From contig CAZAQG010000005.1 in the NCBI GenBank assembly GCA_964487445.1, forward strand, positions 1 through 44,612: a stretch of DNA of 44,612 nt, given 5' to 3'. The stretch comes from an uncultured Chromatiales bacterium (GTDB lineage Bacteria > Pseudomonadota > Gammaproteobacteria > 21-64-14). A program made the position numbers and the translations under genes. The notes below the pieces were generated by a model. That model was not told the origin of the DNA, ran no database searches, and was given only the letters and a program-made list of their open reading frames with translations. Below, in pieces: positions 24,189 through 39,093 of the stretch. The stretch's first letter is position 1. Each line of letters begins with the position of its first letter.

Positions 24189-25742
24189 ATGCAAATGCGA
24201 AACCTGCATCACATCAAAACCGGGGCGCTCGCTCTGGGCGGACTCATGCTCGGTGCATTCGGCGCATTCGGTCCGACGGCGCATGCGCGTCCGGCGGCCA
24301 CACCCATCCGACACCTGGTCGTCATTTTCCAGGAGAACGTCTCCTTCGATCACTACTTCGCCACCTACCCGCATGCCGCCAACCCGCCGGGCGAGCCCCG
24401 CTTCACCGCGGCGCACGGCACGCCGTCGGTCAACGGCCTCACCCGTTACCTGCTCACACACAACCCGAACAGCGCCAATCCCTTCCGCCTCGATCGCTCG
24501 CAGGCGATGACCTGCGACATGGACCATGCCTACGCCGCCGAGCAGCACGCCGCCGACGCGGGCCTCATGGATCGCTTCGTCGAGTCGACCGGCGCGACCT
24601 ATGACGGCTGCAACCCGGCGCAGGTGATGGGCTACTACGACGGCAATACCGTCACGGCGCTGTGGAACTACGCGCAACGCTTCGCCATGAGCGACAATTC
24701 GTTCGGCACCACCTTCGGGCCCTCGACGGTCGGCGCCCTCAACTTGGTCGCGGGGCAGACCCACGGGGCCACCCCCGCCAACCTGCCGAACAAGGTCGCC
24801 AACGGGACCGTGATCGGCGACCTGAATCCGACCTACGACGACTGCTCGCCGACCGACAAACCGACCTTGGCCATGCGCGGGACCAATATCGGCAACCTGC
24901 TCAACGCCGCGCACGTCACCTGGGGATGGTTCCAGGGAGGCTTCCGGCCGACGGCGCGCACCGACGGGAAGGCCGTGTGCGGAGCCACGAGCACCAACAT
25001 CGCCGGCCGGACGGTGTCCGACTACAGCCCGCACCACGAGCCGTTTCAGTATTACGCGTCGACGGCCAACCCGCATCACCTGCCGCCCACCGCGGTAGCC
25101 ATGATCGGGCGCACCGACCGGGCCAAACACCAGTACGACCTGCGCGATTTCTGGGCCGCGGCACATGCCGGCAATCTACCGGCGGTGAGTTTCCTCAAGG
25201 CCAAGAAGTACCAGGACGGCCATGCCGGCTACTCGGACCCGCTCGACGAGCAGACCTTCCTCGTGCGGACGCTGAACCGGCTCCAGCGCCTGCCGCAGTG
25301 GAAGCACACCGCCGTAATCATCTCCTACGACGACTCCGACGGCTGGTACGACCACGTGCTCGCCCCGATCGTCAACCAGTCCAACGACCCGAACTACGAC
25401 GCCCTGACCGGTCCCGGCACCTGCGGGAGCGCGGCCACCGGCGCCTATCCCGACCGTTGCGGCTACGGTCCGCGCCTGCCGCTGCTGGTGATCTCGCCGT
25501 GGGCCCGGGAGAACTTCGTCGACCACGGCATCACCGACCAATCCTCCATCCTGCGCTTCATCGAGGACAACTGGCACCTGGGTCGCATCGGCGACCAATC
25601 CTTCGACGCCAAGGCCGGTTCGCTCCGGAACCTGTTCGACTTCCGCGGCGGTGCGCACATGCGCCGGTTGTTCCTGAGCCCGCGCACGGGCGAGCGGGTA
25701 GACCACAAGCGCGGGGGTGACGACGCATCTATGGGCGAGTGA
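24189..25742 (+). CDS. Secreted phospholipase C/acid phosphatase (phosphoesterase family)
   Basis: Sec-type signal peptide (..AHA); TPIRHLVVIFQENVSFDHYF, FGPST, LPAVSF, YDDSDGWYDHV, GPRLPLLVISPWA, SILRFIEDNW. Confidence 0.92.
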   Translation: MQMRNLHHIKTGALALGGLMLGAFGAFGPTAHARPAATPIRHLVVIFQENVSFDHYFATYPHAANPPGEPRFTAAHGTPSVNGLTRYLLTHNPNSANPFRLDRSQAMTCDMDHAYAAEQHAADAGLMDRFVESTGATYDGCNPAQVMGYYDGNTVTALWNYAQRFAMSDNSFGTTFGPSTVGALNLVAGQTHGATPANLPNKVANGTVIGDLNPTYDDCSPTDKPTLAMRGTNIGNLLNAAHVTWGWFQGGFRPTARTDGKAVCGATSTNIAGRTVSDYSPHHEPFQYYASTANPHHLPPTAVAMIGRTDRAKHQYDLRDFWAAAHAGNLPAVSFLKAKKYQDGHAGYSDPLDEQTFLVRTLNRLQRLPQWKHTAVIISYDDSDGWYDHVLAPIVNQSNDPNYDALTGPGTCGSAATGAYPDRCGYGPRLPLLVISPWARENFVDHGITDQSSILRFIEDNWHLGRIGDQSFDAKAGSLRNLFDFRGGAHMRRLFLSPRTGERVDHKRGGDDASMGE

Positions 25743-25753
25743 TCCCACCCGCC

Positions 25754-25783
25754 GGGCGGCCCTGCGAGGGGCCGCCCTTTTTT
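25754..25783 (+). terminator. Rho-independent terminator
   Basis: GGGCGGCCC-TGCGAG-GGGCCGCCC followed by TTTTTT, just after the phosphoesterase stop codon. Confidence 0.9.
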
Positions 25784-25819: not shown

Positions 25820-25888
25820 CATAATTTAAATTGTGGGCCGCTGAGAATGAAGCGATGCTTGCATCGGCGCGGGGGTCGGGGGTAATCT
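25820..25888 (+). promoter_or_regulatory. Promoter of the riboswitch-led operon with an upstream palindromic operator
   Basis: TTGCAT (25859), N18, TAATCT (25883) would place the start site just 5' of the riboswitch. Palindrome CATAATTT/AAATTGTG at 25820-25835. Confidence 0.45.
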
Positions 25889-25898
25889 TTACACCGAC

Positions 25899-25956
25899 GG
25901 CGAAGGAGTTCGCCGCGGCGCGCGCCGGAATCGCCCTCTCGGCTGATAACTCCTGC
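25899..25956 (+). ncRNA. Fluoride riboswitch (crcB motif)
   Basis: GGCGAAGGAGUUCGCC...GAAUCGCC-CUCUC-GGCUGAUAACUCCUGC. P1 is GGCG/CGCC; the pseudoknot GGAGUU/AACUCC is a perfect 6 bp; the AAUCGC and GCUGAU..CUCCU conserved blocks are present; fluC lies downstream. Confidence 0.9.
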
Positions 25957-26010
25957 TACGGGTGGCAGCTGTTGGAGCCGCGGGAATGGTGCCCCGTGTG
26001 AGGAGGGTGT

Positions 26011-26973
26011 GTGCCGGATCTCGTTCATCATCTGCTTGCCAATCTTCTCCAAGTCGCCTTTCTGGTCCTCTTCTCGCCGCTGGTAAGCGGCGTACTCGCT
26101 CGCATCGAGGAGATGTTGCAGGGCAAACACGGTCCGAGCATCTTTCAGGGCTACCGCGACATCGCCAAGCTCTTCACCAAGGAAGAGTTGATTTCCGAAG
26201 ACTCCTCCTGGGTGTTTCGCTTCGCACCGCCGATACAGTTCGTGATGCCGATCTTCGTCGTCCTGCTGGTGCCGGCGCTCACCGCCTATCCGTTGTTCTT
26301 CGCCTTCATGGGCGACATGGTCGCGGCCGGCTTCTTCCTTGCGCTCGGTGGATTCTTCGTCGCGCTGGCGGCCATGGACACCGGAAACGTATACGGCCCG
26401 GTCGGGGCAAGCCGAACGCGCATGGTCGGCTTTCTCTCCGAACCGGTGTTCATCATGGTATTCTTCAGCGTCTCCTATATCGCCAATTCGACCATCCCCT
26501 ATGCGGTGAACGCCGCGTTCTCGGCGTCCTGGGCGACGAGTCTCGAGCCCGCGCACCTGCTGGTACTGGTCGCCTTCTTCATGCTCATCCTCGCCGAGAA
26601 CGACCGCATTCCGGTCGACAGCGCCGCCGGGAAAATCGAGATCGCCATGATCGGACATTCCAAGAACCTCGAGTATTCGGGGCCGGGCGCCGCCCTGATG
26701 AAATGGGGCGGGTCGATGAAACTGATGCTGCTCGCGATCATCTTTCTCAACGTGCTGCTCACCCCCTGGGGGCTCGCGACCACCATGGCCTGGAGCGACA
26801 TCTTCCTCGCCATACCCCTGGTACTCGCAAAGATACTGGTGTTTCTATTGGTGCTGGCGACCGTCGAGATGAGTCTCGCGAAGTTGCGCCTGTTCCGCAT
26901 CAGCGAGTTCCTGGCCACCGCCTTCGTGATCTGCGTGTTCGCGATGAGCGTCAGACTGGTGGGAATCGCATGA
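26011..26973 (+). CDS. HyfC/HycD (NuoH-like) membrane subunit of an Ehr-type complex
   Basis: MLQGKHGPSIFQGYRDIAKLF.KE, AENDRIPVD, LEYSG; AGGAGG RBS before GTG. Confidence 0.9.
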   Translation: MPDLVHHLLANLLQVAFLVLFSPLVSGVLARIEEMLQGKHGPSIFQGYRDIAKLFTKEELISEDSSWVFRFAPPIQFVMPIFVVLLVPALTAYPLFFAFMGDMVAAGFFLALGGFFVALAAMDTGNVYGPVGASRTRMVGFLSEPVFIMVFFSVSYIANSTIPYAVNAAFSASWATSLEPAHLLVLVAFFMLILAENDRIPVDSAAGKIEIAMIGHSKNLEYSGPGAALMKWGGSMKLMLLAIIFLNVLLTPWGLATTMAWSDIFLAIPLVLAKILVFLLVLATVEMSLAKLRLFRISEFLATAFVICVFAMSVRLVGIA

Positions 26974-27653
26974 GCGCGCAGGCACTGGAACTCGCCCGCG
27001 CGTTCGACGGCTTTTTCGCCGCGCTGTTCGTACTCGCCGGCCTGGGCGTAATCGTGGCACGGCAGATGCGCGGCACCCTGTATCTGTTCATGTCGCATGC
27101 ACTGATGCTCAGCGCCTCGGCCGTCGTGCTCGCCGTGGCTCTGCACAGCACCCATCTCGCCTGGGTGGCGCTGATCACCTTCAGTACCAAAGTGGTGGCC
27201 GTGCCGTTGGTGTTGGTCTGGGCGACGGGCGCCAAGGTCTATGGGCGGCGCGAAGTCGACCACGTGCTTTCCGTCCCCCTGTCGCTGTTGATCGCCGCCG
27301 GGCTGGCGTTCGCCGCCTGGATCGTGAGTCAGCCGCTGGTCCATGCCATCCCCGGACGGCCCTTCGCGGCGATCAATTTGCCTACCGGCCTCATAGCGAT
27401 CTTCTTCGGGGCCTTCACGGTAGCGGTACGCCGCGAGGGCGTGGCTCAGCTCATGGGCCTGCTGATCATGGAAAGCGGCGCCTTTTTCGCGTCGATCTCG
27501 ATCGTTCATGACCTGACCATCATCGCCGAGATCGCCGCGGCGGTGGACGTCCCCATCGCGGCGTTGGTCATCGGGCTGCTCCTGCGTTCCATAGGGGCGG
27601 TGACCGGCAGCACCCGCGTCGGACACATGGCCACCTTGCGCGAGCGCCGTTGA
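26970..27653 (+). CDS. HyfE-like (NuoK-related) membrane subunit
   Basis: Multi-TM protein with TKVVAVP, RRE..AQLMGLLIMESG and IIAEIAAAVD; ATGA overlap with the upstream stop. Confidence 0.85.
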   Translation: MSAQALELARAFDGFFAALFVLAGLGVIVARQMRGTLYLFMSHALMLSASAVVLAVALHSTHLAWVALITFSTKVVAVPLVLVWATGAKVYGRREVDHVLSVPLSLLIAAGLAFAAWIVSQPLVHAIPGRPFAAINLPTGLIAIFFGAFTVAVRREGVAQLMGLLIMESGAFFASISIVHDLTIIAEIAAAVDVPIAALVIGLLLRSIGAVTGSTRVGHMATLRERR

Positions 27654-29107
27654 TGGTACTCACCCTCATCCTCATCCTTCCGATCGGCGCGGCGCTGCTC
27701 ACCGTGGCGCGCCGCCGCGCCGCGCCGTGGGTCACCCTGGCCTCCGCCCTGGCGGTGCTGGGTCTGGCCGTCGTCGCCGCGCGGGACGTGATGGCGACCG
27801 GGCCGCTGGTGGGGGCGCACGGCGGATTTACGCTGGATGCACTGGGTGCGCTGTATCTGCTGCTCGTCGCCTTCGTGGGCGTGACCGCTTCGTTGTATTC
27901 GATCGGCTACCTCGAGGCCCGCCACCGCGAGGCGGGCCGTGTTGCGCCCCGCTACCGCCAGTATTACCCGCTGTTCAATCTCTTCCTCGCTTCCATGCTG
28001 GCGGTGCCCCTGCTTACCAACCTTGCGGTGATGTGGATAGCGATCGAACTCACCACCATCTTCTCCGCCTTCCTGGTGGCCTACGAAGACCGCGCCGAGG
28101 CACTGGAAGCGGCCTGGAAGTACGTCGCCCTCACCACCATGGGCGCGATGATCGCGCTGCTGGGTATCCTGGTGATCTACTACGGCGTCCACCATGCGGG
28201 CCAACCGCCGAGCTGGGCGGGACTGGTCGCCGCCGCGCCGCACATACCGCCTGCGGTACTGCTCACCGGCTTCGTGCTCGCGCTGGTCGGCTTCGGCGCC
28301 AAAGCCGGCTTGGTGCCGATGCACACCTGGCTCCCGGATGCACACAGCCAGGCGCCGGCTTCGATCTGTGCGTTGCTCTCCGGTGTGGAGACCAGCGCCG
28401 CGCTGTACATGATTCTGCGCCTGTACCCGGCGCTGGCGCGCAACCCCGGCATCCCCGATGCAAACGCCTGGTACCTGGTCGCCGGCCTCATGTCGGTGGG
28501 AGCGGCCGCGCTCCTCATTCTTCAGGTCACCGATTTCAAACGCCTGTTCGCCTACTCCACGGTGGAGCATATGGGCATCATCCTCACCGCCTGCGGACTG
28601 GGCACCCCCGCCGCCCATCTGGGTACGGTGTACCAGCTTTTCGCCCATGCCCTGACCAAGTCATTCTGCTTCTATGCCGCGGGCCTCGCCGCCGTCACCC
28701 TGGGCACGCAGCGTATACGCGGCAGCAGCGGGCTCCTCAGCAGTTCGCCGCTGGTCGGTTGGGCGTTGCTGCTGGGTGCGCTGGCCATCGCCGGCGCACC
28801 GCCTTTCGCCATCTTCATTTCCGAGTTTCAGATTCTGCGCGCCGGGTTCGGAGCCGGCGAGTACCTGGCCACGGGCCTGCTGACCGTTTTCATCGTGGTC
28901 GCCTTCATCGCCATCGTGTATCAGATCGGCGGCATCGTGTTCCGCCAGCCCGCGCCCGAGCGCGCCCCTGCTCACCCGCTCCCGGTGAGCAGCGTGTTTG
29001 CGATGGCGATCGCCTTCCTGCCGCTGCTGGTATTCGGCTTCTATCTGCCGCCGCCGCTGCTGCGGCTGGTCCACCAAGCCGCCGCCCTGCTCGGAGGCAC
29101 GCCGTGA
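27650..29107 (+). CDS. HyfF-like proton-conducting (antiporter-like) subunit
   Basis: WIAIELTT, ALEAAWKY, GFGAKAGLVPMHTWLPDAHSQAP, FKRLFAYSTVEHMG, PPFAIFISEF. Confidence 0.9.
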   Translation: MMVLTLILILPIGAALLTVARRRAAPWVTLASALAVLGLAVVAARDVMATGPLVGAHGGFTLDALGALYLLLVAFVGVTASLYSIGYLEARHREAGRVAPRYRQYYPLFNLFLASMLAVPLLTNLAVMWIAIELTTIFSAFLVAYEDRAEALEAAWKYVALTTMGAMIALLGILVIYYGVHHAGQPPSWAGLVAAAPHIPPAVLLTGFVLALVGFGAKAGLVPMHTWLPDAHSQAPASICALLSGVETSAALYMILRLYPALARNPGIPDANAWYLVAGLMSVGAAALLILQVTDFKRLFAYSTVEHMGIILTACGLGTPAAHLGTVYQLFAHALTKSFCFYAAGLAAVTLGTQRIRGSSGLLSSSPLVGWALLLGALAIAGAPPFAIFISEFQILRAGFGAGEYLATGLLTVFIVVAFIAIVYQIGGIVFRQPAPERAPAHPLPVSSVFAMAIAFLPLLVFGFYLPPPLLRLVHQAAALLGGTP

Positions 29108-30669
29108 ACCGACTCGCGACATTGGCCGCGGCGCTGGCCGATCATCCGGGCCTCGAGTCATCCCGGCTCACGCAAGATCAACTGGAACTTACCGCGGTGC
29201 CCGGAGCGGTTTCGGTGCTCGTGGAATTGCTGACTCACGAGTACGGCTTCGAGTTTGCGACACTGCTCGCCGAGGATCTCGATTGCGGCTTTACCCTGCA
29301 TTATTCCTTCTTCCATCCGGCGGATCACGTGCTCGTCTCGATCGGGACGAGCGCAAGCGGGGAACTGCCGACCATCAGCGACCGCATCTATGCGGCCGAC
29401 TTGTACGAGCGCGAGGCCGAGGATCTGTTCGGGCTGCATTTTTCCGGACATCCCTTCCTCGGGGACTTCGTGCTCCATGACGACGTCTGGCCGGAGGCCG
29501 TAGCGCCGATGTGCCGGCGCTACGCCGCGACGACCCCGTCGGCGAGTGCCGAGCGAGCCTCCACGTGGCACCCGCGGCGCCAACTCACCGAATCCGGGAG
29601 TGTCGTGTTTCCGATCGGACCGGTGTGGGGCGATTACCTCGAGGCGGGGCTCTACGTGCTCGAAGGACCCGGCGAACAGATCCGCCTCGCCCACACACGA
29701 CTGTTCTACAAGTACCGGGCGGTGGAGAAGATCGCCGAAGGCCTGCCGGTGCCCGCCGTGCTGCTGCTCGCGGAACGCTTCAGCGGCAACGCCGCCGTGG
29801 CGCACGCACTGGCCTTGTGCCAAGCGGCGGAGCGTATCTCGCACACGACGGTACCCGAGCGGGCGCGTCGCCTGCGCGTGGTGCTCGCCGAACTCGAGCG
29901 CATGCGCTACCACATGGCGGTGCTGGCGGAGCTTGCCGGTTCCACCGGCCTGGCGATTGGAAAGGCCATGGGCCAGGAATTGGAAGAGGCGCTGCTGCGC
30001 CTCGCCGCGCGCGTCGGCGGCCACCGTTACTTGTTCGGCCTGATCGCCCCCGGCGGGCTCGCTCGCGACCTGGATGCCGGCGCACTGGCGACGCTCGGCG
30101 CCGAACTCCCCTCGCTCCTGATACGTATACGCCGATACCAACGGCTGCTGGAGGCGAGTTCGAGTTTTCTCGACCGCATCGAGGAGGTGGGCGCACTCGA
30201 TGCGACGCTCACCGCGCGCTACGCCACCGTCGGCCCGATCGGACGCGCTTCCGGTCGTACCCTGGACCTGCGCTGCGCCCTGCCCTATGCCGGCTACGCG
30301 AGCCTGCCCCCCGCAGTGGCGGTAGAATCCGAAGGGGACGGCTACGCGCGCATGCGGGTGTTCTTCCATGAAATCGAGGACTCGGGCGCGTTGATAGGCG
30401 CGGCGCTCGACGCGCTGCCGACCGGCGCGGCGACCGCCGGCTGGGAGCCGTGCGAGGGTTCCGCCCTCGGCTGGGCCGAGGCGCCGTCCGGAGCGTTCTT
30501 CGACTGGCTGCGACTCGACGCCGACGGCCGTGTGCAACGCTGGTCGGCCGGCACGCCGGGATACCGTAACTGGCACGCCTTCCACCGCGCGGTGGAGGGC
30601 GCCGCATTCCAGGATTTCCCGATCATCATGGCGAGCTTCGGACTTTCGGTGGCGGAGAACGATCGCTGA
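29104..30669 (+). CDS. HyfG/HycE-like (NuoCD) large subunit lacking Ni-Fe ligands (EhrL-type)
   Basis: NuoC-like YEREAEDLFGLHFSGHP plus NuoD-like LAELERM..H and EAPSG. The L1 site reads ERFSGNAAVAH and the L2 site DFPIIMASFGLSVAENDR, both without CxxC. Confidence 0.88.
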   Translation: MNRLATLAAALADHPGLESSRLTQDQLELTAVPGAVSVLVELLTHEYGFEFATLLAEDLDCGFTLHYSFFHPADHVLVSIGTSASGELPTISDRIYAADLYEREAEDLFGLHFSGHPFLGDFVLHDDVWPEAVAPMCRRYAATTPSASAERASTWHPRRQLTESGSVVFPIGPVWGDYLEAGLYVLEGPGEQIRLAHTRLFYKYRAVEKIAEGLPVPAVLLLAERFSGNAAVAHALALCQAAERISHTTVPERARRLRVVLAELERMRYHMAVLAELAGSTGLAIGKAMGQELEEALLRLAARVGGHRYLFGLIAPGGLARDLDAGALATLGAELPSLLIRIRRYQRLLEASSSFLDRIEEVGALDATLTARYATVGPIGRASGRTLDLRCALPYAGYASLPPAVAVESEGDGYARMRVFFHEIEDSGALIGAALDALPTGAATAGWEPCEGSALGWAEAPSGAFFDWLRLDADGRVQRWSAGTPGYRNWHAFHRAVEGAAFQDFPIIMASFGLSVAENDR

Positions 30670-31406
30670 TGGCCAACTGGGTAGCACACAGTCTGATCGA
30701 CGGTATCCGCAGCGAACCCGGCCTCGACGCCGGGCGCCTGCCGGCGGGCGCGACCCCCGGCCGAGCGGTATCGCAGCCGCTCGCGGCACAGGCCGCGGCA
30801 CGAATGGCCGCAATCTGCCCCAGCGGAGCGATAACGGCGCGCGGGGATGCGGTCGACGTGGATTTCGTACACTGCGTGCATTGCCAGCGATGTCGCCGGC
30901 CCGACGGTGATCTCGCATGGCGGGAAGATGCGCGATGGGGCGCATGGCGTGATGCGGCGCCCAACCCCTTGCCGCGCCGCTTCCGCCGCTCGGTCCATGT
31001 GCGCTACCTCGACGCCGGTGCTTGCGGCGCTTGCATGGGCGAAGTGCGTCTGATCGACGCGCCGCCGTACAACCTGCATCGCTACGGTATCTTCATCACA
31101 GCCACGCCGCGCGACGCCGACGTATTGCTGGTCGCCGGGCCGGTCACCGAGGCGATGCGCCTGCCGTTGCGCAAGACCTACGAGGCGATGCCGGAGCCGA
31201 AGCGGGTGGTGGCGATGGGGGTCTGCGCGATCGACGGCGGCGTTTTCGGTCGGAGTTTCGCCAGCATCGGCGGCGTGCGAAACGTGGTGCCCGTGGACCT
31301 CGTCATCGCCGGCTGCCCACCCCCGCCGCTCGCAATCGCGCATGGCCTGTTGCTCGCCGCCGGGCAGTTGCAACCGGAGCAGGGCAGCGATGCCCCCGAG
31401 TCATGA
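30669..31406 (+). CDS. NuoB/HycG-like small subunit fused to an N-terminal ferredoxin-like domain
   Basis: DAGACGAC, TPRDADVLLVAGPVT, GVCAIDGG, IAGCPPPP; N-terminal ICPSGAI and CVHCQRC. Confidence 0.9.
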   Translation: MANWVAHSLIDGIRSEPGLDAGRLPAGATPGRAVSQPLAAQAAARMAAICPSGAITARGDAVDVDFVHCVHCQRCRRPDGDLAWREDARWGAWRDAAPNPLPRRFRRSVHVRYLDAGACGACMGEVRLIDAPPYNLHRYGIFITATPRDADVLLVAGPVTEAMRLPLRKTYEAMPEPKRVVAMGVCAIDGGVFGRSFASIGGVRNVVPVDLVIAGCPPPPLAIAHGLLLAAGQLQPEQGSDAPES

Positions 31407-33511
31407 CGTGGTTCGCCGCCGCTTTCGCCGCTCTGGCCGCGAGCATCGTAGTGGTCTGGATTTCGCCGGCCCGGGCTCGGGTCCGGGCGAGCGGGTGCGC
31501 CTTTTTCGCGGCGAGCGGATTGGTGTTCATCACCGGCGTAGAGGCCATATCGACCGGCGGCGCAACCGTTTCCCTCGGCCCCCTCTCGTTGCTGGGAGAG
31601 ATCGGCTTTGTGCTGAATCCGCTGCGGGGGTTGTTTCTCATCGTCACCGCCGTCGTTTTCCTGGCCGCGACACCCCTGATGATTCGCGACGCGGCTCAGT
31701 ACCCGCGTCATCGGGCGGCGCTGTTTCTCACCCTGGTCGCGATATTGTACGCCGGCATGCTCGCATTCTTCACCGCGGCCGACATAGTGTCTTTCGTCTT
31801 CTTCTGGGAAATCAGCGCGTTGGCTATCTGGGGGCTGGTTACCTTTCACGCTCAGGAAGCGCGCCCGGTCGCGGCGGGCTATCTGACACTGATGTTGAGC
31901 GAAGCCGGAACGCTGGCCGGCATGGCCGGCCTTTTCCTGCTCGCCTCCCACGCACATGGCACGGCGTTGTCGTCCATCGCGGCGGCGGGGAATCAACTGC
32001 CGGCAGGCACATTGTGGATCGCTTTTCTGCTCACGTTCTTCGGCTTCGGCGTCAAGGCCGGCATCGTGCCCGTCAATGCCTGGCTCCCCGAGGCGCACGG
32101 CTCGGCCCCGCGATCGGTTTCACCGATCCTCTCCGGCGCGACGCTCAACCTCGGCGTGTTCGCACTCTTCGTCATCGACGGCCCCATTGCGATCCATCAC
32201 CCGCAGATGGCGCTGCTCGTTCTTTTCGTCGGCGCGGTAACGGCATTGACCGGTATCGTCTATGCGCTTACCGAGCGCGATCTGAAACGGTTGCTTGCGC
32301 AAAGTTCGATCGAAAACCTGGGGATCGTGGTAGCGGCGTTGGGAGCGGGATTCACCTTTGTCTCGCTGGGCCACCCGGTGCTCGGCGCCATGGCGATGGT
32401 GGCCGGTCTCTACCACATGATCAACCACTCCGCCTACAAGACATTGCTGTTTGTGGGGGCGGCCGGCATCGACCAGGCGACCGGCACCCACGACCTGGAT
32501 CGCTTGGGCGGACTCATGCGGCGCATGCCGGTGTTCGCCACGGCCTTTCTCATCGGCGCGCTGGCGATCGCCGCACTGCCGCCTTTCAACGGCTTCGTCA
32601 GCGAGTGGCTGCTGTTCGAATCGCTGTTGCGGGTGGTGGAGATCGCCTCGCATCCGGTGCGCGCCGTCTTCGCGCTTTCGGGGGCGATGCTCGCGCTGAC
32701 CGTGGGACTCGCACTGACCTGCTTTGTAATGCTGGCCGGCTCGGCGCTGCTTGGACGGCCGCGGTCCGATGTGGTCGCCGCAGCGACGCCGGCACCGGCG
32801 AGCGCGACCATCCCGATGTGGGGGCTCGTCGCAGTCTGTTTCGGGCTCGGGGTACTGGCCACTGCAGTGATTCCGCTGCTGGGGAAACTGGTTCACCCGC
32901 TGGCCGGCGCCAACCCCACCGCGGCACTGGTCCCGGCCTTCTTCGCCACCCCGCATGGGCTGCCCGCCGGACTGACCACCACCTTGTCGGGGATAGGCGC
33001 CGAGGTCGGGCGCGGCGTGCTGCCGTTGCGTTCTCTGGTGGTGATGCATTCGGGCGGAGCCGCCACGCCGGTGGTCTTTGCGATGTCCACCGCACTTGCA
33101 TTCGCGGTGATCGTCCTTTTGCTGCTAAGCACCTGGGGTGCAACGCGCCTGCTGCGCCGGCGCCGCCCCCGTCGCGTCGGCGTCTGGGATGCCGGCCTGC
33201 CGAGCCTGCAACCGCAGATGGGCTACACCGCCACCGCCTTCTCCGCCCCCGTGCGGGTGCTCTTCGAATCGCTGTTGCGCCCCGTCGTGCAAGAGCGGCA
33301 ACACTCTCAAGGCAGCTTTCTCATCGGCATCGAGCGCGAAACGCATGTGGTCCACCTCGTTGACCGCCTGTTCTTGAACCCGATGTCCTATGCGGTGAAG
33401 GCGATTGGGCGATCATTGGCCTGGTTACACCAAGGTGCCGTCACGCTCTATGCCACCTGGGTGCTGGCGACGCTGTTCGCCGCACTGATGGCCATGAAAT
33501 TCTCCTTGTAA
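31403..33511 (+). CDS. HyfB/HycC-like antiporter-like subunit, copy 1
   Basis: FFWEI, GFGVKAGIVPVNAWLPEAH, LKRLLAQSSIENLG, HMINHSAYK, PPFNGFVSEW; ATG 31403 overlaps the upstream stop. Confidence 0.9.
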   Translation: MTWFAAAFAALAASIVVVWISPARARVRASGCAFFAASGLVFITGVEAISTGGATVSLGPLSLLGEIGFVLNPLRGLFLIVTAVVFLAATPLMIRDAAQYPRHRAALFLTLVAILYAGMLAFFTAADIVSFVFFWEISALAIWGLVTFHAQEARPVAAGYLTLMLSEAGTLAGMAGLFLLASHAHGTALSSIAAAGNQLPAGTLWIAFLLTFFGFGVKAGIVPVNAWLPEAHGSAPRSVSPILSGATLNLGVFALFVIDGPIAIHHPQMALLVLFVGAVTALTGIVYALTERDLKRLLAQSSIENLGIVVAALGAGFTFVSLGHPVLGAMAMVAGLYHMINHSAYKTLLFVGAAGIDQATGTHDLDRLGGLMRRMPVFATAFLIGALAIAALPPFNGFVSEWLLFESLLRVVEIASHPVRAVFALSGAMLALTVGLALTCFVMLAGSALLGRPRSDVVAAATPAPASATIPMWGLVAVCFGLGVLATAVIPLLGKLVHPLAGANPTAALVPAFFATPHGLPAGLTTTLSGIGAEVGRGVLPLRSLVVMHSGGAATPVVFAMSTALAFAVIVLLLLSTWGATRLLRRRRPRRVGVWDAGLPSLQPQMGYTATAFSAPVRVLFESLLRPVVQERQHSQGSFLIGIERETHVVHLVDRLFLNPMSYAVKAIGRSLAWLHQGAVTLYATWVLATLFAALMAMKFSL

Positions 33512-33537
33512 CCTCCCGGCCGAAGGATAAGGCGCGC

Positions 33538-35658
33538 ATGATCTGGACCTTGTTTACTTTGGTTTTCGTTGCCTTGCTCGCGGCGTTGGGGGGTGCCGCC
33601 CTGGCCGGTTCTCCGATCGGGCGCAACCTGCACCGCTTGGCCGGATGGAGCGCCGCGGCGCTGGCCTTGGCCGCCGGTGTACTGGCCATGCTGGGGCACA
33701 CGCTGTCGGCGCATGTCCCCTTGTCTTTGCTCGGATCGATGCTGTTTATGCTGAATCCGTTGCGAGGCTTCTTTATCGTTATCGCCGCCTGCGTATATGC
33801 GGCCACGCTCGCGGGCGCAACCGCCGGCGCCGGGCGTGAACCGCCCCGGCGGGCCGTTTTGTTCCTCATTCTCTACACGGTGCTGTTCGCGGCCCTGCTC
33901 GCGGTACTTACGGCGGGCGATGTCCTCTCCTTCGTATTCACCTGGGAGATCATGTCGCTAGCGCTGTGGGGGCTGGTGAGCTTTCGCGTAGAGGGCGAGC
34001 AACGCTGGCAGGCGTCGCTCGGCACCATCGCGTTCAGCGAGGCCGGTACCATTGCCGGGCTTGCCGGGCTGCTGATACTCGCCGCCGGCGCCGGAAGCCC
34101 GGATCTCGCCGTGATCGCCCAACGCGCGGCCGATCTGCCGCCGGCCATCCGCTGGACCGGCTTTCTGCTCACCTTCTACGGCTTCGGAGTAAAAACGGGC
34201 ATCGCCCCGGTGAACCTTTGGATGAACGACGGCTACGCCGCCGCGCCGCCCGCGGCGCGCGCGCTGTTCTCCGGCGCAACCATCAACCTCGGCGTGTTCG
34301 CGCTGTGGACCATCGACGGCCCGCTTGCGGTCCACGAACCGTGGATGGGGCTGCTGGTGCTGGTGACCGGCGCAGTCACCGCACTGCTCGGCATCCTCTA
34401 TGCGATCCTCTCACGCGACATCGGCCGCCTGCTCACCGAGAGTTCCATCGAAAACCTCGGCATCGTGGTGGCGGCAAGCGGCGCCGGTTTCGCCTTCGTC
34501 GCCTACGGTCACCCGGTGCTCGGGGCCATCGCGTTGGTGGCCGGTCTCTACCACATGCTCAATCACTCCGCCTTCAAAACGCTGCTCTTCCTCGGCGCAG
34601 ACGGCATCGAGCAGGCGACCGGCACCGCCGATCTGGACCAATTGGGCGGGCTCATGCGACACGTACCGCTGTTCGCCACGGCCTTTCTCATCGGTACGAT
34701 CGCGATCGCCGCGCTGCCGCCGTTCAACGGCTTCGTGAGTGAGTGGCTGGTACTTGAATCCCTGCTGCGCGTGGTGGCGATCGCTTCGGTGCCCGTTCGT
34801 CTCGTCTTTGCGCTCTCCGGTGCGCTGCTCGCGCTTACCGCGGGACTTGCACTCACCTGCTTCGTATCGCTCGCCGGCACCGCGCTGCTCGGCCGGCCGC
34901 GTTCGTCCTATGCCGCCAACGCGCGCGTCGCGCCGATGAGCGCAACCTTGCCGATGTGGCTGCTGGCGGGCGTATGCCTGGCACTCGGCGTCTCCGCGAC
35001 CGCCGTCATTCCGCTGCTCGGCGCGCTGGTGCACCCGCTGGCCGGCGCCGATCCCACCAACGCGCTGGTACCCGCCTTCTTCGGTGTCCCCCAAGGTCTT
35101 CCCGCCGGCCTGGCAACCGCGCTTTCGGGGATAGGCGCCGAGATCGGGCGCGGCGTGCTGCCGTTGCGCTCGCTGGTCGTCGTACATTCGGGCGGCGCCG
35201 CCACACCGGTGGTCTTTGCCATGTCCACCGCCCTCGCCTTCGTCGTGATCACCATCATGTTGTTCTGCGTCTGGCTCGCGGTCCACTTACTGCGCGGGGC
35301 GCGGGCACGGCGCGTGCGAGCCTGGGATGCCGGCCTGTCGCAGTTGCAGCCGGAAATGCTCTACACCGCCACCGCCTTCTCCGCCCCTGTGCGGGTGCTC
35401 TTCGATACCCTGCTTCACCCCGTGGTCGACGAGCAACAGCACCAGCACGGCGTGTTTCGGATAGGCCTGGAACGCGAAACCCATCTTGTACACGTCGCCG
35501 AACGATGGACATTGCGCCCGCTGGTCGCCGCGGCGAACGCCGCATCGAGCGGGCTTGCGCGCATGCATCGCGGGCGGGTGACGCTCTACGCCGCCTTCAT
35601 CCTCGCGAGCGTGGTGCTGGCGCTGCTGCTCGCCGCGGCCCTGATGCTGATAAATTGA
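33538..35658 (+). CDS. HyfB/HycC-like antiporter-like subunit, copy 2
   Basis: FTWEI, GFGVKTGIAPVNLWMNDGY, SSIENLG, HMLNHSAFK, PPFNGFVSEW; clear paralog of copy 1. Confidence 0.9.
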   Translation: MIWTLFTLVFVALLAALGGAALAGSPIGRNLHRLAGWSAAALALAAGVLAMLGHTLSAHVPLSLLGSMLFMLNPLRGFFIVIAACVYAATLAGATAGAGREPPRRAVLFLILYTVLFAALLAVLTAGDVLSFVFTWEIMSLALWGLVSFRVEGEQRWQASLGTIAFSEAGTIAGLAGLLILAAGAGSPDLAVIAQRAADLPPAIRWTGFLLTFYGFGVKTGIAPVNLWMNDGYAAAPPAARALFSGATINLGVFALWTIDGPLAVHEPWMGLLVLVTGAVTALLGILYAILSRDIGRLLTESSIENLGIVVAASGAGFAFVAYGHPVLGAIALVAGLYHMLNHSAFKTLLFLGADGIEQATGTADLDQLGGLMRHVPLFATAFLIGTIAIAALPPFNGFVSEWLVLESLLRVVAIASVPVRLVFALSGALLALTAGLALTCFVSLAGTALLGRPRSSYAANARVAPMSATLPMWLLAGVCLALGVSATAVIPLLGALVHPLAGADPTNALVPAFFGVPQGLPAGLATALSGIGAEIGRGVLPLRSLVVVHSGGAATPVVFAMSTALAFVVITIMLFCVWLAVHLLRGARARRVRAWDAGLSQLQPEMLYTATAFSAPVRVLFDTLLHPVVDEQQHQHGVFRIGLERETHLVHVAERWTLRPLVAAANAASSGLARMHRGRVTLYAAFILASVVLALLLAAALMLIN

Positions 35659-35894
35659 AGTGCGCCCGCCCCCGGCAGCCCCCCGGCGCCGCAAGGGGCT
35701 GCAAATCACCGACGGGGGCCCTGATGCCCTCCTGCTTGGCGCGACGACTCGACATGCTCCGGCTTTCCCGTGACGTGGACACACTCGGCGACAGATGAAG
35801 CCCATGAATGCCTGCTCCGCGCCGATCGGCGTGCTATTCTTGCCCGTCCTGGCGACGGACCCCTTTACATTTATGAAGAAGGAGGAAGATACGT

Positions 35895-36269
35895 ATGTGG
35901 CTGTTCCTGTCGGTAAGCCTCGGCGCCGTGGCCGGGGCGTGGGCCCGCTACGGCATGACGATGTTGATACAAACGGTGGCCGGACAGCGCTTTCCCTGGG
36001 CGACGCTCGCCATCAACGTGCTGGGCTCATTCCTGATGGGCTTTTTGTTCTTCGAGACCCTGGAGCGCGTCGTCGTTTCACCGGAACTGCGCGCCGGGCT
36101 ACTCACCGGAGGACTCGGGGCGTTCACTACCTTCTCCACCTTCACGATGGAGTCGCTGCTGCTCGTCGAGGACGGTCGGCTGGCGGCGGCGCTGGCCTAC
36201 GTAACCCTGTCGGTCGTGGTCGGCTTCGGCGCCGCCTTCGCCGGCGCCTATCTATCACGTAAACTGTAA
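35895..36269 (+). CDS. crcB: Fluoride efflux channel FluC/CrcB
   Basis: GAVAGAWARY, FPWATLAINVLGSF, TGGLGAFTTFSTF; 124 aa with four TM segments; AGGAGG RBS. Confidence 0.96.
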   Translation: MWLFLSVSLGAVAGAWARYGMTMLIQTVAGQRFPWATLAINVLGSFLMGFLFFETLERVVVSPELRAGLLTGGLGAFTTFSTFTMESLLLVEDGRLAAALAYVTLSVVVGFGAAFAGAYLSRKL

Positions 36270-36300
36270 CAAAGACCCACTTTACCGGGAGGATACCGGC

Positions 36301-36663
36301 ATGCTCAAAGACATCACCGTCGTGCGCATCTATCTCACCGAGGGCGATCACCGAGAGCATCACCTGCTACTCGAGGAGATCCTCTCGATCCTGCACGATC
36401 GCCGCCGCGTGCGCGGCATGACGGTGTTCCGTGCGATCAGCGGCTTCGGCGCACGCGGCGTGGTGCACTCCGCCGACCTGCTGCGCCTCACCGCCCACCT
36501 TCCGCTGGTGGTGGAGTTCTTCGACGAACCGGCGGTCGTCGAAAATGCCCTCGAGCTGATCGAAGCACTGATGCCGCCCGGCCATATCGTTTCGTGGCCG
36601 GCGCGCTGCAATTGCGGGTCAGGTGCCCAAAGCCCGTCACCCCCCGCACCCGGGAACGACTGA
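36301..36663 (+). CDS. DUF190 (PII-like) protein
   Basis: RIYLTEGD, GMTVFRAISGFG, LPLVVEFFD; the usual neighbour of crcB. Confidence 0.9.
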   Translation: MLKDITVVRIYLTEGDHREHHLLLEEILSILHDRRRVRGMTVFRAISGFGARGVVHSADLLRLTAHLPLVVEFFDEPAVVENALELIEALMPPGHIVSWPARCNCGSGAQSPSPPAPGND

Positions 36664-36994: not shown

Positions 36995-37891
36995 ATGACA
37001 GGGGCAACCACAGAGCGAAACGTGGCCGTAGAGCACGCACTGCTGAGACTGCGCGAGTTACCGCCGCTGCCGCTGGCGATCCGGGAACTCTCTGCAACCC
37101 TCAGCGACGACCAGGCAAGCTACGCGGTGATCGCCAAGGCCCTGAACCGCGACCCGCCTCTCACTGCGCGCATCCTCGGGCTGGCCAATTCCGCCTTCTA
37201 CGGCATGGCGGGGCGCGTACACTCGGTGCAGGATGCGGTCCGGATACTCGGGCTGACCCTGGTACGCGGCGTGGCCATGGGCATGTGCCTCATGGAACCG
37301 CTGGACACCCGACGCTGCGCAAGCTTTCGCCCCCGGGACTACTGGCTGTCCTCACTGCTCACCGCGCTTGCGGCGCGGCGCCTGTCGTCGCTGGTGACCG
37401 CCAGGACCGCCGCGTTCTCTACGATTTCCGAGGATCTCGCCTATCTCGGCGGCCTGTTGCACCGCATCGGAGTCATCGCACTGGTCTTCCTGCGCCCGGA
37501 CGTAATGGAGCCGTTGCTGGGCGGCCTGCGCGGACGTGACGGCACGCCGCTGAGCAGCCTGGAGGAACACTACCTGCAGCTGAATCACCGACAGGCCGGG
37601 GCATGGCTGCTGTGGCGCTGGCGACTGCCCGGGCCGCTGCCGCACGTCGCGGCGCACTACGCGGAGCGCGGCTACCGCGGCGAGGACTGGGGACTGTGCG
37701 CCCTGGTGGGACTTGCCTCGCGTTGGGCCGATGGGATCCTGGCCGGCGATTCGGAAACACCGTGGGACGACACGACCCTCTCGATCTTGGGCATCGCACC
37801 GAAGCCTGCGGGCCGCCTGCGCGACGAGTTGGCGCCGACCGCCGAGTCGCTGCGCGAGACCGCGCGGGAGATGGCGGAGCACGGCGCGTGA
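36995..37891 (+). CDS. HDOD domain protein
   Basis: LPPLP, DPPLTARILGLANSAFYG, V.SVQDAV..LG, GLLHRIG, H.QAGAWLLWRWRLP. Confidence 0.9.
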   Translation: MTGATTERNVAVEHALLRLRELPPLPLAIRELSATLSDDQASYAVIAKALNRDPPLTARILGLANSAFYGMAGRVHSVQDAVRILGLTLVRGVAMGMCLMEPLDTRRCASFRPRDYWLSSLLTALAARRLSSLVTARTAAFSTISEDLAYLGGLLHRIGVIALVFLRPDVMEPLLGGLRGRDGTPLSSLEEHYLQLNHRQAGAWLLWRWRLPGPLPHVAAHYAERGYRGEDWGLCALVGLASRWADGILAGDSETPWDDTTLSILGIAPKPAGRLRDELAPTAESLRETAREMAEHGA

Positions 37892-39093
37892 GTCGCGAGC
37901 CGCTGCGCGACGCAGTCCGCGACCTGCAGGACGGCGTCCTGAACCTGCTCGACGCCCTCTCGGTACTCGGCGCCACCTGGGCCCTGCCGGCCGAAGGGCA
38001 AGGCGAGGAGGCGTTGCTGTCCGCCGTTCTGGAAATCGTGCTCGGCCATCCGAACGTGCAGGGCGCTTCGATCCATCTGCTGCGCGGCGAGTGGCTCGAA
38101 CGCGTCGCCGCGCGCGACGTCGCCGACCTGCTCGGTCCCGATGCCCCGGCACCGGGGCCCCCGCCCGGAGCCGAACGGATCGCGCCCGGCGACGGGGTAA
38201 TCGGCCGCGCAGCCGCCGCCGCGACGCTGCAGCACTGCGCGGACTGCGCTCGGGAACCGGCGGGTGCAGGCCAGCCGAACGTCGGCTCGTTGATCGCCGC
38301 GCCCATCCCCGGAAGCGAGAGGGCGCCCGAAGTACTCGGCGTCCTCAGCCTCACCCATGCCGACCCCGGGCAATTCACCCGCTGGCACGAGCGACTCGCC
38401 GCAACGCTCGCCGGTGCCGTGGGGCAACTCCTGCGCAGCAACCGCCTCTCGCGCGACCTCGAGGCCGAGGTCCGCGAGCGTACCCGGGCGCTCGCCGAAG
38501 CGCTCGCCGAGTCACAACGCCTGCGCGAGCGCTTCGAGGAGTGGGCCCTGGTCGACGAACTCACCGGGCTGCGCAACCGCCGTTTCTTCTTTTCGGAGGG
38601 CGAGATCCTCGTGCAGCGCTCGTTGCGCTACGACGATCCCCTGAGCCTCATCATGCTCGACCTCGACCGCTTCAAGGAGATCAACGACACCTGGGGACAC
38701 GGTCAGGGCGATGTGGTGTTACGCGAGATCGCCCAGCTGCTCGAGGCCGGAATGCGCCGCGGCGATCTGCTCGCACGCTTCGGCGGCGAGGAATTCGTCC
38801 TGTTGCTCTCTCATACCGATTGCGACGGCGCCAAGCGCTTCGGCGAGCGCCTGTGCGAGCGGGTGGCGCAGCATCCACTACGCTATCAAGGCACCGAGCG
38901 GCGCACGACCATCACCGTCGGGGTCTCCTGCCACCGCCCCGGCCACCCGGAGGACTCCGCGCAACTGCTGGCTCAGCTCATCCGCGAGGCCGACGACGCC
39001 CTCTACTACGGAAAGGCCCATGGGCGCAACTGCGTACACACCTACCCCGACCTGACCTCCTTGGGAATCACCCACCTCAAAGGAAAGTCCTGA
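37888..39093 (+). CDS. GAF-GGDEF diguanylate cyclase
   Basis: GAF-like GVIGRAA..GSLIAAPI..VLGVL, a coiled-coil linker, DELTGLRNRR, DLDRFKEINDTWGH, RxxD I-site and GGEEF. Confidence 0.92.
   Translation: MSREPLRDAVRDLQDGVLNLLDALSVLGATWALPAEGQGEEALLSAVLEIVLGHPNVQGASIHLLRGEWLERVAARDVADLLGPDAPAPGPPPGAERIAPGDGVIGRAAAAATLQHCADCAREPAGAGQPNVGSLIAAPIPGSERAPEVLGVLSLTHADPGQFTRWHERLAATLAGAVGQLLRSNRLSRDLEAEVRERTRALAEALAESQRLRERFEEWALVDELTGLRNRRFFFSEGEILVQRSLRYDDPLSLIMLDLDRFKEINDTWGHGQGDVVLREIAQLLEAGMRRGDLLARFGGEEFVLLLSHTDCDGAKRFGERLCERVAQHPLRYQGTERRTTITVGVSCHRPGHPEDSAQLLAQLIREADDALYYGKAHGRNCVHTYPDLTSLGITHLKGKS

Follow-up and report, generated by a model that had tools for sequence, protein, structure and literature searches.

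Why a fluoride riboswitch should stand ahead of genes resembling those of a hydrogenase is the question raised by the locus described here. It lies in a contig of 44,612 nucleotides (CAZAQG010000005.1, assembly GCA_964487445.1; this whole stretch is denoted here as the window) from an uncultured Chromatiales bacterium, in which a fluoride aptamer precedes seven genes of the HyfC-E-F-G-I-B-B type, followed by crcB and a DUF190 gene (Table 1). According to passages of two reports (PMC11139923, PMC8004769), 'formate hydrogen lyase' has been cited among the fluoride-riboswitch-associated genes since Baker et al. 2012, and the first of them, in those same passages, interprets the association as fermentative metabolism. 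The riboswitch neighborhood itself is already known. What appears to be new is the identity of the complex, which is nickel-less and of the energy-converting hydrogenase-related (Ehr) type, the link of its family as a whole to fluoride, and the existence within this family of a clade devoid of Fe-S ligands. None of these three points was found in print in our literature search, nor was any publication that goes further than the name 'formate hydrogen lyase' in connecting this type of complex with fluoride, with the proviso that the supplements of Baker 2012 may hold some such cases implicitly. We consider it very probable that the genes specify a fluoride-regulated Ehr complex serving fluoride defense.

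The first piece of evidence is the aptamer. The original prediction, made from the letters of the window, had described a complete fluoride aptamer followed by seven HyfC-E-F-G-I-B-B genes of a Ni-less Ehr type (five overlapping junctions and one 26-nt gap) beside crcB, encoding Fluc, and DUF190, and had proposed a search with the Rfam fluoride model. This search returned RF01734 at 25890-25962 as the sole Rfam family matched across the 44.6-kb window, covering the full model (positions 1-64) and scoring 36.1 bits, where the gathering threshold is 34, with an E of 1.7e-6. The gene content was likewise confirmed by Pfam and NCBIfam matches, the Ni-less character by the HycE alignment described below, and the junctions by the gene coordinates, the first five overlapping by 1-4 nt and the sixth being the 26-nt gap. 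All aptamer elements are present, namely P1 (GGCG/CGCC), P3 (GCC/GGC) and the pseudoknot strands GGAGU and ACUCC, and the core deviates at two positions, where A replaces U or G (GAAGG and CUGAUAA, the consensus type being GAUGG/CUGAUGA). The modest Rfam score is explained by an additional hairpin of 11 nt, which separates P1 from P3; alignment with nine relatives revealed that the insert recurs with compensating changes (CGGC/GCCG versus CAGC/GCTG). This extra hairpin is located at 25915-25928 in the window and occupies the same place in loci L001, L016, L029, L012 and L019, with an Rfam score just above threshold. A whole-genome search (2.47 Mb, 97.8%-complete) found no second fluoride riboswitch, and chance is excluded because the only one in these 2.47 Mb sits in the Ehr operon leader. 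The phosphoesterase gene on the 5' side ends in a strong terminator (25754-25777), which marks the 5' boundary of the operon, so that the aptamer opens a new transcription unit; a promoter scan upstream of the aptamer detected no sigma-70-like site.

The last Rfam position of the aptamer is separated by 48 nt from the GTG start of HyfC (about 54 nt when counted from the end of the conserved core), and a terminator scan of the leader showed none between the aptamer and this start codon. The Shine-Dalgarno AGGAG (26001-26005) is placed 5 nt ahead of the GTG at 26011, and its predicted pairing with CUCCU, the 3' pseudoknot strand of the aptamer, appears when the leaders of the window, L001 and L029 are folded at minimum energy and is missing in the corresponding fold of L003, the z-scores of the sub-leader folds being significant for L029 only. 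A translational ON switch is the likeliest design predicted from this leader, fold statistics being weak, and it is plausible that the aptamer binds fluoride and switches expression on.

The second piece of evidence came from the relatives of the operon. More than 2,300 HyfG homologues were present in the protein collection; scanning one genome per species gave 314 loci with a relative, from which the best 80, with up to 10 kb of flank per side, were taken, and the counts of related loci given here refer to these 80 of 314 or to subsets of them. As judged by tblastn with nine window proteins, every sufficiently long locus has the gene order HyfC-E-F-G-I-B, with an optional second B that is found in only 14 related loci. 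In a trial, Rfam at its gathering threshold placed the aptamer at the expected position in six of seven loci, and a covariance model built from these trial aptamers produced 109 matches at E <= 0.001 in the 80 loci (nine matches with E > 0.001 were ignored). The leader was evaluable in 66 loci, in which HyfC is preceded by 300 nt or more; the 14 left out had no HyfC on the contig (13) or had it at the contig edge (one). A riboswitch on the same strand was found within 600 nt upstream of HyfC in 57 of the 66, at a median distance of 213 nt, and in four more crcB, DUF190 or DUF211 intervened and the distance was 816-1262 nt. Moreover, two further carriers emerged when 400 other genomes, sampled evenly across the phylum, were examined, both with a same-strand riboswitch 3.8-3.9 kb upstream of HyfG, which is the expected distance. 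The survey of homologous operons suggested in the original prediction was thus answered by a riboswitch in 61 of 66 evaluable loci and in both carriers of the independent sample.

Genome-wide searches sharpened the picture. The metagenome-assembled genomes (MAGs) of a Salinisphaera and of an Acidobacteriaceae member each contain one fluoride riboswitch, located in the Ehr leader; A. montserratensis has two, each preceding an Ehr operon; and the nine of Eoetvoesiella caeni all fall inside one 22-kb stretch that includes the Ehr operon. Carriers span the Gamma-, Beta- and Alphaproteobacteria, Thermodesulfobacteriota, Nitrospirota, Acidobacteriota, Actinomycetota and Spirochaetota, and the HyfG tree places acidobacterial and Desulfobacterales sequences amid proteobacterial groups, which suggests horizontal spread. 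Anecdotally, many of the carriers' names hint at acid environments or vents (Acidithiobacillus, Rhodanobacter, Rhodopila, Acidobacteriaceae, and bog and sulfidic-cave MAGs). The sequencing runs in which DNA of the window was detected are all DNA runs of hydrothermal-vent or marine metagenomes, with no RNA run among them.

The specificity of this link was assessed with 18 loci of another Ni-less Ehr type and two loci of true NiFe formate hydrogenlyase (FHL), each with at least 1.5 kb upstream of the first gene, the latter two showing RVCGICGFAH and DPCYSC. A full-length fluoride riboswitch was found in none of these 20 controls, the best match being a partial one of 23 bits. In Acidithiobacillus, a second and distant Ni-less operon (Ehr-2) is placed just upstream of the first and continues directly into crcB-DUF190; in both genomes examined, a riboswitch stands some 45-85 nt ahead of Ehr-2, including A. 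ferruginosus, which lacks one in its HyfC leader. The comparison of 0/20 controls with 61/66 loci therefore indicates that the riboswitch link is specific to this Ehr family and to Ehr-2, and not a property of Ehr or FHL complexes generally.

Two observations on these other Ehr types deserve mention. In A. montserratensis and A. ferruginosus (L022 1-6900, L135, L136) the two Ni-less operons lie in tandem, in the order riboswitch, Ehr-2, crcB, DUF190 and an open reading frame (ORF), then DUF211, preceded or not by a second riboswitch, and Ehr-1; the iron-oxidizing Acidithiobacillus group is without that second riboswitch, and the HyfI of Ehr-2 has the full two-cluster ferredoxin motif as well as the NuoB Cys residues. 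In addition, the genome of the window carries on contig C97 (L082, 172-7539, minus strand) a Ni-less Ehr operon of the other type, HyfB-C-E-F-G-I, whose large subunit has 'RVSGDSTVAH' where Ni was once bound and '...NGSYSGHDL' at its C-terminus. The approximately 190 nt of its leader on the contig showed no fluoride riboswitch, and 92 of 401 sampled genomes matched its large subunit at E <= 1e-60, cross-family FHL matches included.

What kind of complex is under this control was deduced from HyfG. In its alignment with E. coli HycE (7z0s_E, E 1.7e-48), 'drvCgiCgfah' faces 'aerfSgnAavah', and the C-terminus, which ends ...ASFGLSVAENDR, has no Cys where DPCxxC stands in HycE. Consequently, neither of the [NiFe] group 4 hydrogenase ligand motifs (RxCGxCxxxH and DPCxxCxxH/R) is found, HyfG having RFSGNAAVAH and ...SFGLSVAENDR at these places, and both Ni-binding Cys pairs are replaced in the window protein and in all 26 aligned relatives (52-95% identity). 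The NCBIfam hydrogenase-4 models all score below their curated cut-offs (for instance, HyfB 419.8 versus 667 and HyfF 329.7 versus 610). As HyfG lacks both Ni-binding Cys motifs, the product must be regarded as an Ehr-type complex and not as a formate hydrogenlyase. The name Ehr reportedly goes back to Marreiros et al. 2013. Passages of PMC6349859 and PMC10284858 define Ehr complexes as homologues of group 4 hydrogenase subunits without the Ni/Fe-coordinating residues, a definition to which the window complex conforms by its sequence; neither paper contains the word 'fluoride', and both describe the function of Ehr complexes as unknown or unproven. The operon also encodes three Proton_antipo_M proteins, the antiporter-like membrane subunits of such complexes.

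In HyfI, the small subunit, none of the four Cys that hold the proximal [4Fe-4S] cluster has been lost (C119, C122, C186 and C216; CGAC ... GVCAIDG ... GCPP), and the protein has an N-terminal extension of about 110 residues with a one-cluster ferredoxin-type motif (C50-P, C69xxC72xxC75), to which Fer4-type Pfam models match weakly (E 1.3e-4, below gathering score) and which is predicted to bind one further [4Fe-4S] cluster. The charged residues E133, K218, E247, H333, K337 and E392 of HyfF (76 loci) and E136, K218, H338, H342, K346 and E401 of HyfB are essentially invariant, with K218 present in 71 of 71 HyfB and in 73 of 76 HyfF sequences, the remaining three HyfF loci being unscored. Near-invariance across the family thus extends to the Glu of transmembrane helix (TM) 5, the Lys of TM7, the His/Lys of TM11 and the Glu of TM12, labels that follow the complex I literature. 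HyfG and HyfI are themselves very strongly conserved (mean column identity 67%).

However, the Fe-S ligands are not common to the whole family. Scoring of HyfI was feasible for 73 of the 80 loci, and 74 sequences, including that of the window, were aligned. All eight Cys are kept in 49 of them, the window's included, and seven in ten more, but 15 HyfI lack the entire ferredoxin-like segment together with two or three of the four NuoB Cys, the first three of which are changed to Asn/Asp/Ser, Leu (or Cys) and Asp/Glu (e.g., DAGADGAL, IGDEAIDGG). These proteins form one derived clade inside the gammaproteobacterial branch of the HyfG tree (SH-like approximate likelihood ratio test, SH-aLRT, 99; quick IQ-TREE search), comprising on the tree 14 scored rows and three whose HyfI lies off the contig. 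All 11 members with an evaluable leader have the riboswitch, and the charged residues of the membrane arm are kept as in the Cys-bearing group. Separately, in eight otherwise Cys-complete HyfI (L046, L049, L056, L063, L067, L071, L076 and L080) the last cluster ligand, in GCPP, is Asn, Gln or His, and these may represent a three-Cys cluster variant.

How, then, could such a complex protect the cell? Passages of PMC11139923 state that HF entry acidifies the cytoplasm and lowers the proton motive force (PMF), that export by Fluc is driven by the electrical gradient, and that cells respond to fluoride with Na+/H+ antiporters. The conserved ion-translocating arm, together with the fluoride induction signal, leads us to read the complex as a device restoring pH and membrane potential. 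Starting from its anatomy, its regulatory signal and the family-wide link to fluoride, we infer the induction, the ion moved, its direction and the source of energy as follows. When cytoplasmic fluoride rises, the aptamer pseudoknot would capture CUCCU and free the HyfC ribosome-binding site, allowing translation through six translationally coupled genes and the seventh, and crcB and DUF190 would probably be read through on the same transcript. The product is a seven-subunit, nickel-free, hydrogenase-4/complex-I-like membrane complex of an Ehr-type family that appears to belong wholly to the fluoride regulon. HF leaking in would dissociate and F- would leave through Fluc, the net result being an inward proton leak that drains both pH and membrane potential; the three antiporter-like subunits of the induced complex, together with its HyfC/E channel, would then carry protons (or another cation) out of the cell, restoring the gradient on which Fluc relies. 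In the window-type complex, the drive would most likely be electron transfer from a ferredoxin-like donor, by way of two [4Fe-4S] clusters (that of the fused ferredoxin-like domain and the NuoB-type one), to an acceptor at the remodeled Ni-Fe site. In the Fe-S-less clade the same architecture would have to run as a secondary transporter. For this account as a whole, a fluoride-induced Ehr complex restoring pH and membrane potential and redox-driven in the window, the arguments on either side seem to us evenly matched. The narrower proposal that the complex translocates protons or cations and in this way serves pH/PMF homeostasis strikes us as a close call that could go either way, and redox drive of the window's version as a possibility that we are inclined to doubt.

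Several findings weigh against this account. Folds of the whole leader are no better than those of shuffled sequences (z -0.69). Five of the 66 evaluable HyfC leaders, all from Acidithiobacillus, have no riboswitch, and a filter-off search for a degenerate one in two of them gave nothing above 5 bits. The outcome foreseen by the original prediction as damaging, that homologues usually lack both riboswitch and crcB, did not materialize for the riboswitch; crcB, however, lies within the sequence of only 20 of the 80 loci (DUF190 in 27), so that clustering with crcB does not hold as a family trait and Fluc adjacency of the Ehr operon is common, not defining. The operon includes no electron-donor module (no FdhF, formate dehydrogenase, HycB/HyfA or NuoEFG), and the NuoE/F/G N-module is absent from it and, by synteny, from the 80 related loci. 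In the alignment of HyfG to 7q5y_B, 'tdRmdY' faces 'aeRfsG', which puts a Gly at what we take to be the quinone-binding Tyr of NuoD in complex I, and the Ni ligands are gone as well. The TM8 Lys is replaced in all three antiporter-like subunits, by Glu/Ser in HyfF (located from alignments to MbhH and MBS) and by Asn in HyfB (located by eye), and the ion path is, by its sequence, non-canonical. Finally, the Fe-S-less clade keeps the riboswitch and the membrane arm, and redox drive is therefore not the common denominator of the family. The word 'redox-linked' used in the original prediction is left insecure by the missing donor module, the lost Ni site, the Gly for Tyr and the Fe-S-less clade, although the eight Cys of the window's HyfI still speak for it.

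The same evidence bears on the competing explanations. The Fe-S-less clade (15 loci), which retains riboswitch, gene order and membrane charges, and the lack of a donor module anywhere in the 80 loci would fit the view that all members are redox-independent, Mrp-type antiporters exchanging cations such as K+ or Na+ for H+ in pH homeostasis, with the Fe-S clusters as a relic and the hydrophilic cap in a structural or regulatory role. This view also agrees with Na+/H+ antiporters being the next commonest riboswitch-linked class after exporters and with the report of deactive complex I as a Na+/H+ antiporter, as given in passages of PMC11139923 and PMC3464577, respectively. However, the retention across several phyla of eight Cys in 49 of 74 HyfI, and of seven in ten more, points to selection on the clusters, the Fe-S-less state is a single derived clade, and a conservation as strong as that of HyfG and HyfI fits poorly with a relic. 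In addition, homologues of MrpE/F/G, small Mrp subunits linked to Na+ handling, are absent. We regard this alternative as unlikely, albeit worth keeping in mind. A bolder idea is that the family is not in essence a redox enzyme, that the remodeled cavity at the HyfG/HyfI/HyfC junction, the former seat of Ni-Fe or quinone, binds F-, HF or a metal-fluoride and that the antiporter-like subunits couple proton flow (or redox energy, with electron flow in the Fe-S members) to its expulsion, making the complex an active fluoride pump. The near-universal and specific regulon link is in keeping with it, as are the status of the Ehr complex as often the only riboswitch target of its genome, the lack of a fluoride exporter alongside in most loci (crcB is absent from 60 of 80), the former active-site residues of HyfG that are replaced and yet invariant within the family (W175, E180, R225-F-x-G228, H234 and C239), the change of Cys to Asp, Glu or Asn, which are hard-metal ligands, in the Fe-S-less clade, and the analogy with cyanobacterial NDH-1MS, described in part of the literature as coupling a complex-I-like module to CO2 hydration. 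If true, this would give Ehr complexes their first assigned function, and no fluoride pump before it would have been primary or multi-proton-coupled. Yet the antiporter-like subunits keep Lys/Glu pairs of the cation/proton type, Fluc is encoded alongside in the window and 19 other loci, where a pump would be partly redundant, and at low pH the exported F- would come back as HF, all of which makes direct fluoride handling improbable.

The remaining two explanations concern metabolism. Riboswitch-controlled enolase, pyrophosphatase, citrate synthase and histidine phosphatase occur in the same loci, and the genome also has a canonical NuoD, so the complex could be conceived as a fluoride-insensitive stand-in for a fluoride-sensitive respiratory or PMF-generating enzyme, rather than as a response to proton influx with HF. 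However, it is without the donor and acceptor sites of complex I, the Fe-S-less members cannot respire, and we know of no complex-I-type enzyme that is a recognized fluoride target, so we see only a slim chance for such a role. That the genes encode a genuine FHL or H2-evolving hydrogenase-4, induced for a fermentative shift, could be argued from database names such as 'formate hydrogenlyase subunit 5', from the E. coli FHL being the closest solved structure, and from the description of riboswitch-linked genes as FHL in passages of PMC11139923. Against this, both Ni-binding Cys pairs are missing in the window and 26 relatives, no formate dehydrogenase, HycB/HyfA-like or hyp gene was seen in the operon or the flanking genes tested, and all hydrogenase-4 matches fall under the NCBIfam cut-offs. 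The FHL identity was rejected as contradicted by a HyfG sequence without Ni ligands, and we give it hardly any credence.

The complex can also be set against known systems. The E. coli Hyf (FHL-2) and FHL-1 (7Z0S) complexes share with the window the HyfC, E, F, G, I and B homologues, the NuoC+D fusion and the proximal-cluster Cys motif. In contrast to them, the window complex has no Ni-Fe ligands, HyfA, HyfD, HyfJ, FdhF or hyp genes, all that remains of HyfH (NuoI-like) is a domain for one cluster, fused to HyfI, and its genes follow the order C-E-F-G-I-B(-B) under a fluoride riboswitch that the two true FHL control loci lack. The 'formate hydrogen lyase' class, as passages of the riboswitch literature present it, occupies the same neighborhood, but the genes are Ni-less, the link is near-obligate (61/66) and true FHL shows none. 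Compared to other Ehr complexes, the family is discrete, with an invariant ...ERFSGxAAFAH... and the C-terminal ASFGLSVAEN/SDR, and is tied to fluoride riboswitches, whereas the other type (contig C97 and 18 control loci) has no riboswitch; one subclade of the window family is without Fe-S ligands. Complex I and the ferredoxin-dependent NDH-1 have homologous NuoH, NuoB, NuoC/D and NuoL/M/N and the same membrane-arm Glu/Lys, and NDH-1 and the window complex both do without a NuoEFG module. The window complex differs from complex I in its Gly at the quinone Tyr position, the lack of separate NuoA, J, K and I genes, its two predicted clusters and the replaced TM8 Lys. Mrp antiporters have comparable MrpA/MrpD-type subunits (matches to PDB 7qru and 6z16) and are a possible model for the Fe-S-less clade, but NuoH-, NuoB- and NuoCD-like subunits, which are missing from Mrp, belong to the window complex, in which no MrpE/F/G-like genes were seen. 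Lastly, MBS/Mbx (6U8Y), which matches HyfF and HyfG, is another Ni-free member of the superfamily, whose chemistry is carried out at an Fe-S cluster; it is, however, a far more distant match (HyfG E 4.8e-14), with an Mrp-type Na+ module and no fluoride link.

For Ehr complexes, which are related to complex I and widespread, the fluoride link is the first clear physiological cue: a fluoride sensor, often the only one of the genome, nearly always governs one discrete Ni-free family, and also a second one in Acidithiobacillus. Fluoride biology would gain a candidate energy-coupled layer of defense beyond passive export, relevant to acid, fluoride-rich settings (vents, mines, bioleaching) and to the engineering of organofluorine metabolism. 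The Fe-S-free clade, in turn, offers a natural test of a complex-I scaffold working without redox chemistry.

Table 1. Features of the Ehr operon and its borders (positions in the window)
Feature	Position	Strand	Evidence or remark
Upstream phosphoesterase gene	24189-25742		Pfam Phosphoesterase match
Strong intrinsic terminator	25754-25777	+	10-bp stem with 9 GC pairs, then TTTTTT; ends phosphoesterase gene
Fluoride riboswitch aptamer (crcB motif)	25890-25962	+	Rfam RF01734; extra 11-nt hairpin between P1 and P3
Probable expression platform	25951-26013	+	CUCCU (25951-25955) may pair with Shine-Dalgarno AGGAG (26001-26005)
HyfC/NuoH-like membrane subunit	26011-26973	+	Pfam NADHdh, E 1.8e-27
HyfE-like membrane subunit	26970-27653	+	NF008556 hydrogenase 4 membrane subunit, E 7.6e-14, below curated cut-off
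HyfF-like antiporter-like subunit (NuoM/N type)	27650-29107	+	NF005044, E 3.6e-98
HyfG-like large subunit (NuoC+NuoD fusion), no Ni-Fe ligands	29104-30669	+	7z0s_E, E 1.7e-48
HyfI/NuoB-like small subunit	30669-31406	+	C119, C122, C186, C216 present
HyfB-like antiporter-like subunit 1 (NuoL type, 702 aa)	31403-33511	+	NF005086, E 2.1e-125
HyfB-like antiporter-like subunit 2 (706 aa)	33538-35658	+	E 1.3e-119
Spacer, 236 nt	35659-35894	+	Weak terminator-like hairpin 35818-35833 only
crcB (Fluc fluoride channel)	35895-36269	+	Strong Shine-Dalgarno; Pfam E 4.5e-27; TIGR00494 above cut-off
DUF190 (COG1993, PF02641)	36301-36663	+	Pfam E 2.2e-23, 82.8 bits versus 23.4

At the 3' end of the operon, transcriptional read-through across the spacer into crcB is possible. 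The crcB gene is the only copy in the genome (one match in the genome search), scores 94.8 bits with the CRCB domain (threshold 32.9) and 84.3 bits with TIGR00494 (80.45), and by its family membership presumably encodes the fluoride-selective channel Fluc. Among the related loci, DUF190 adjoins crcB in all 20 that contain the latter. The other riboswitches of these loci control enolase, crcB, DUF190, inorganic pyrophosphatase, a Na+/H+ exchanger and MutS-domain-V proteins, as well as MFS transporters, histidine phosphatase, citrate synthase, a FlK-like thioesterase and dynamin-like GTPases, and the genes just 3' of HyfB are of the same kinds, with the addition of a cyclopropane-fatty-acid synthase in Acidithiobacillus. 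These being classic members of the fluoride regulon, it can be concluded that the Ehr operon lives in fluoride-response islands. A shared extra gene, such as a donor module or a maturation factor, was sought 3' of HyfB and in the riboswitch-HyfC interval, and none was found family-wide; the small ORFs of the leaders do not cluster, except for DUF211 in Acidithiobacillus.

Some of these islands hold further candidates for the fluoride response. In Eoetvoesiella caeni and a Castellaniella sp. (L016/L035, 300-6800), five riboswitches within 7 kb control histidine phosphatase, citrate synthase, ORFs of unknown function and the Ehr operon, and a pyrophosphatase follows HyfB. A deltaproteobacterial MAG carrying the Ehr operon (L073) encodes, at 1076-1501 on the plus strand, a FlK-like thioesterase specific for fluoroacetyl-CoA (Pfam FlK, E 1.1e-34), and a separate fluoride riboswitch controls this gene. 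In five loci, the gene directly 3' of a fluoride riboswitch is that of a dynamin-family GTPase (about 590-690 residues), and related ones follow HyfB in three (L024:4231-6315, minus strand; L013; L044; L069; L072; L008:8523-9899); to our knowledge, such a GTPase has not been described as a member of the fluoride regulon. Likewise, six ORFs of 94-107 residues with no Pfam match are found directly 3' of fluoride riboswitches in five deltaproteobacterial loci (L048:9417-9740, L044 with two, L069, L072 and L075). In the window itself, the genes downstream of DUF190 (36995-39093 and 39157-41859) encode an HDOD protein, a GAF-GGDEF diguanylate cyclase and a SNF2-family helicase with DUF3670, neighbors with no apparent tie to the fluoride unit.

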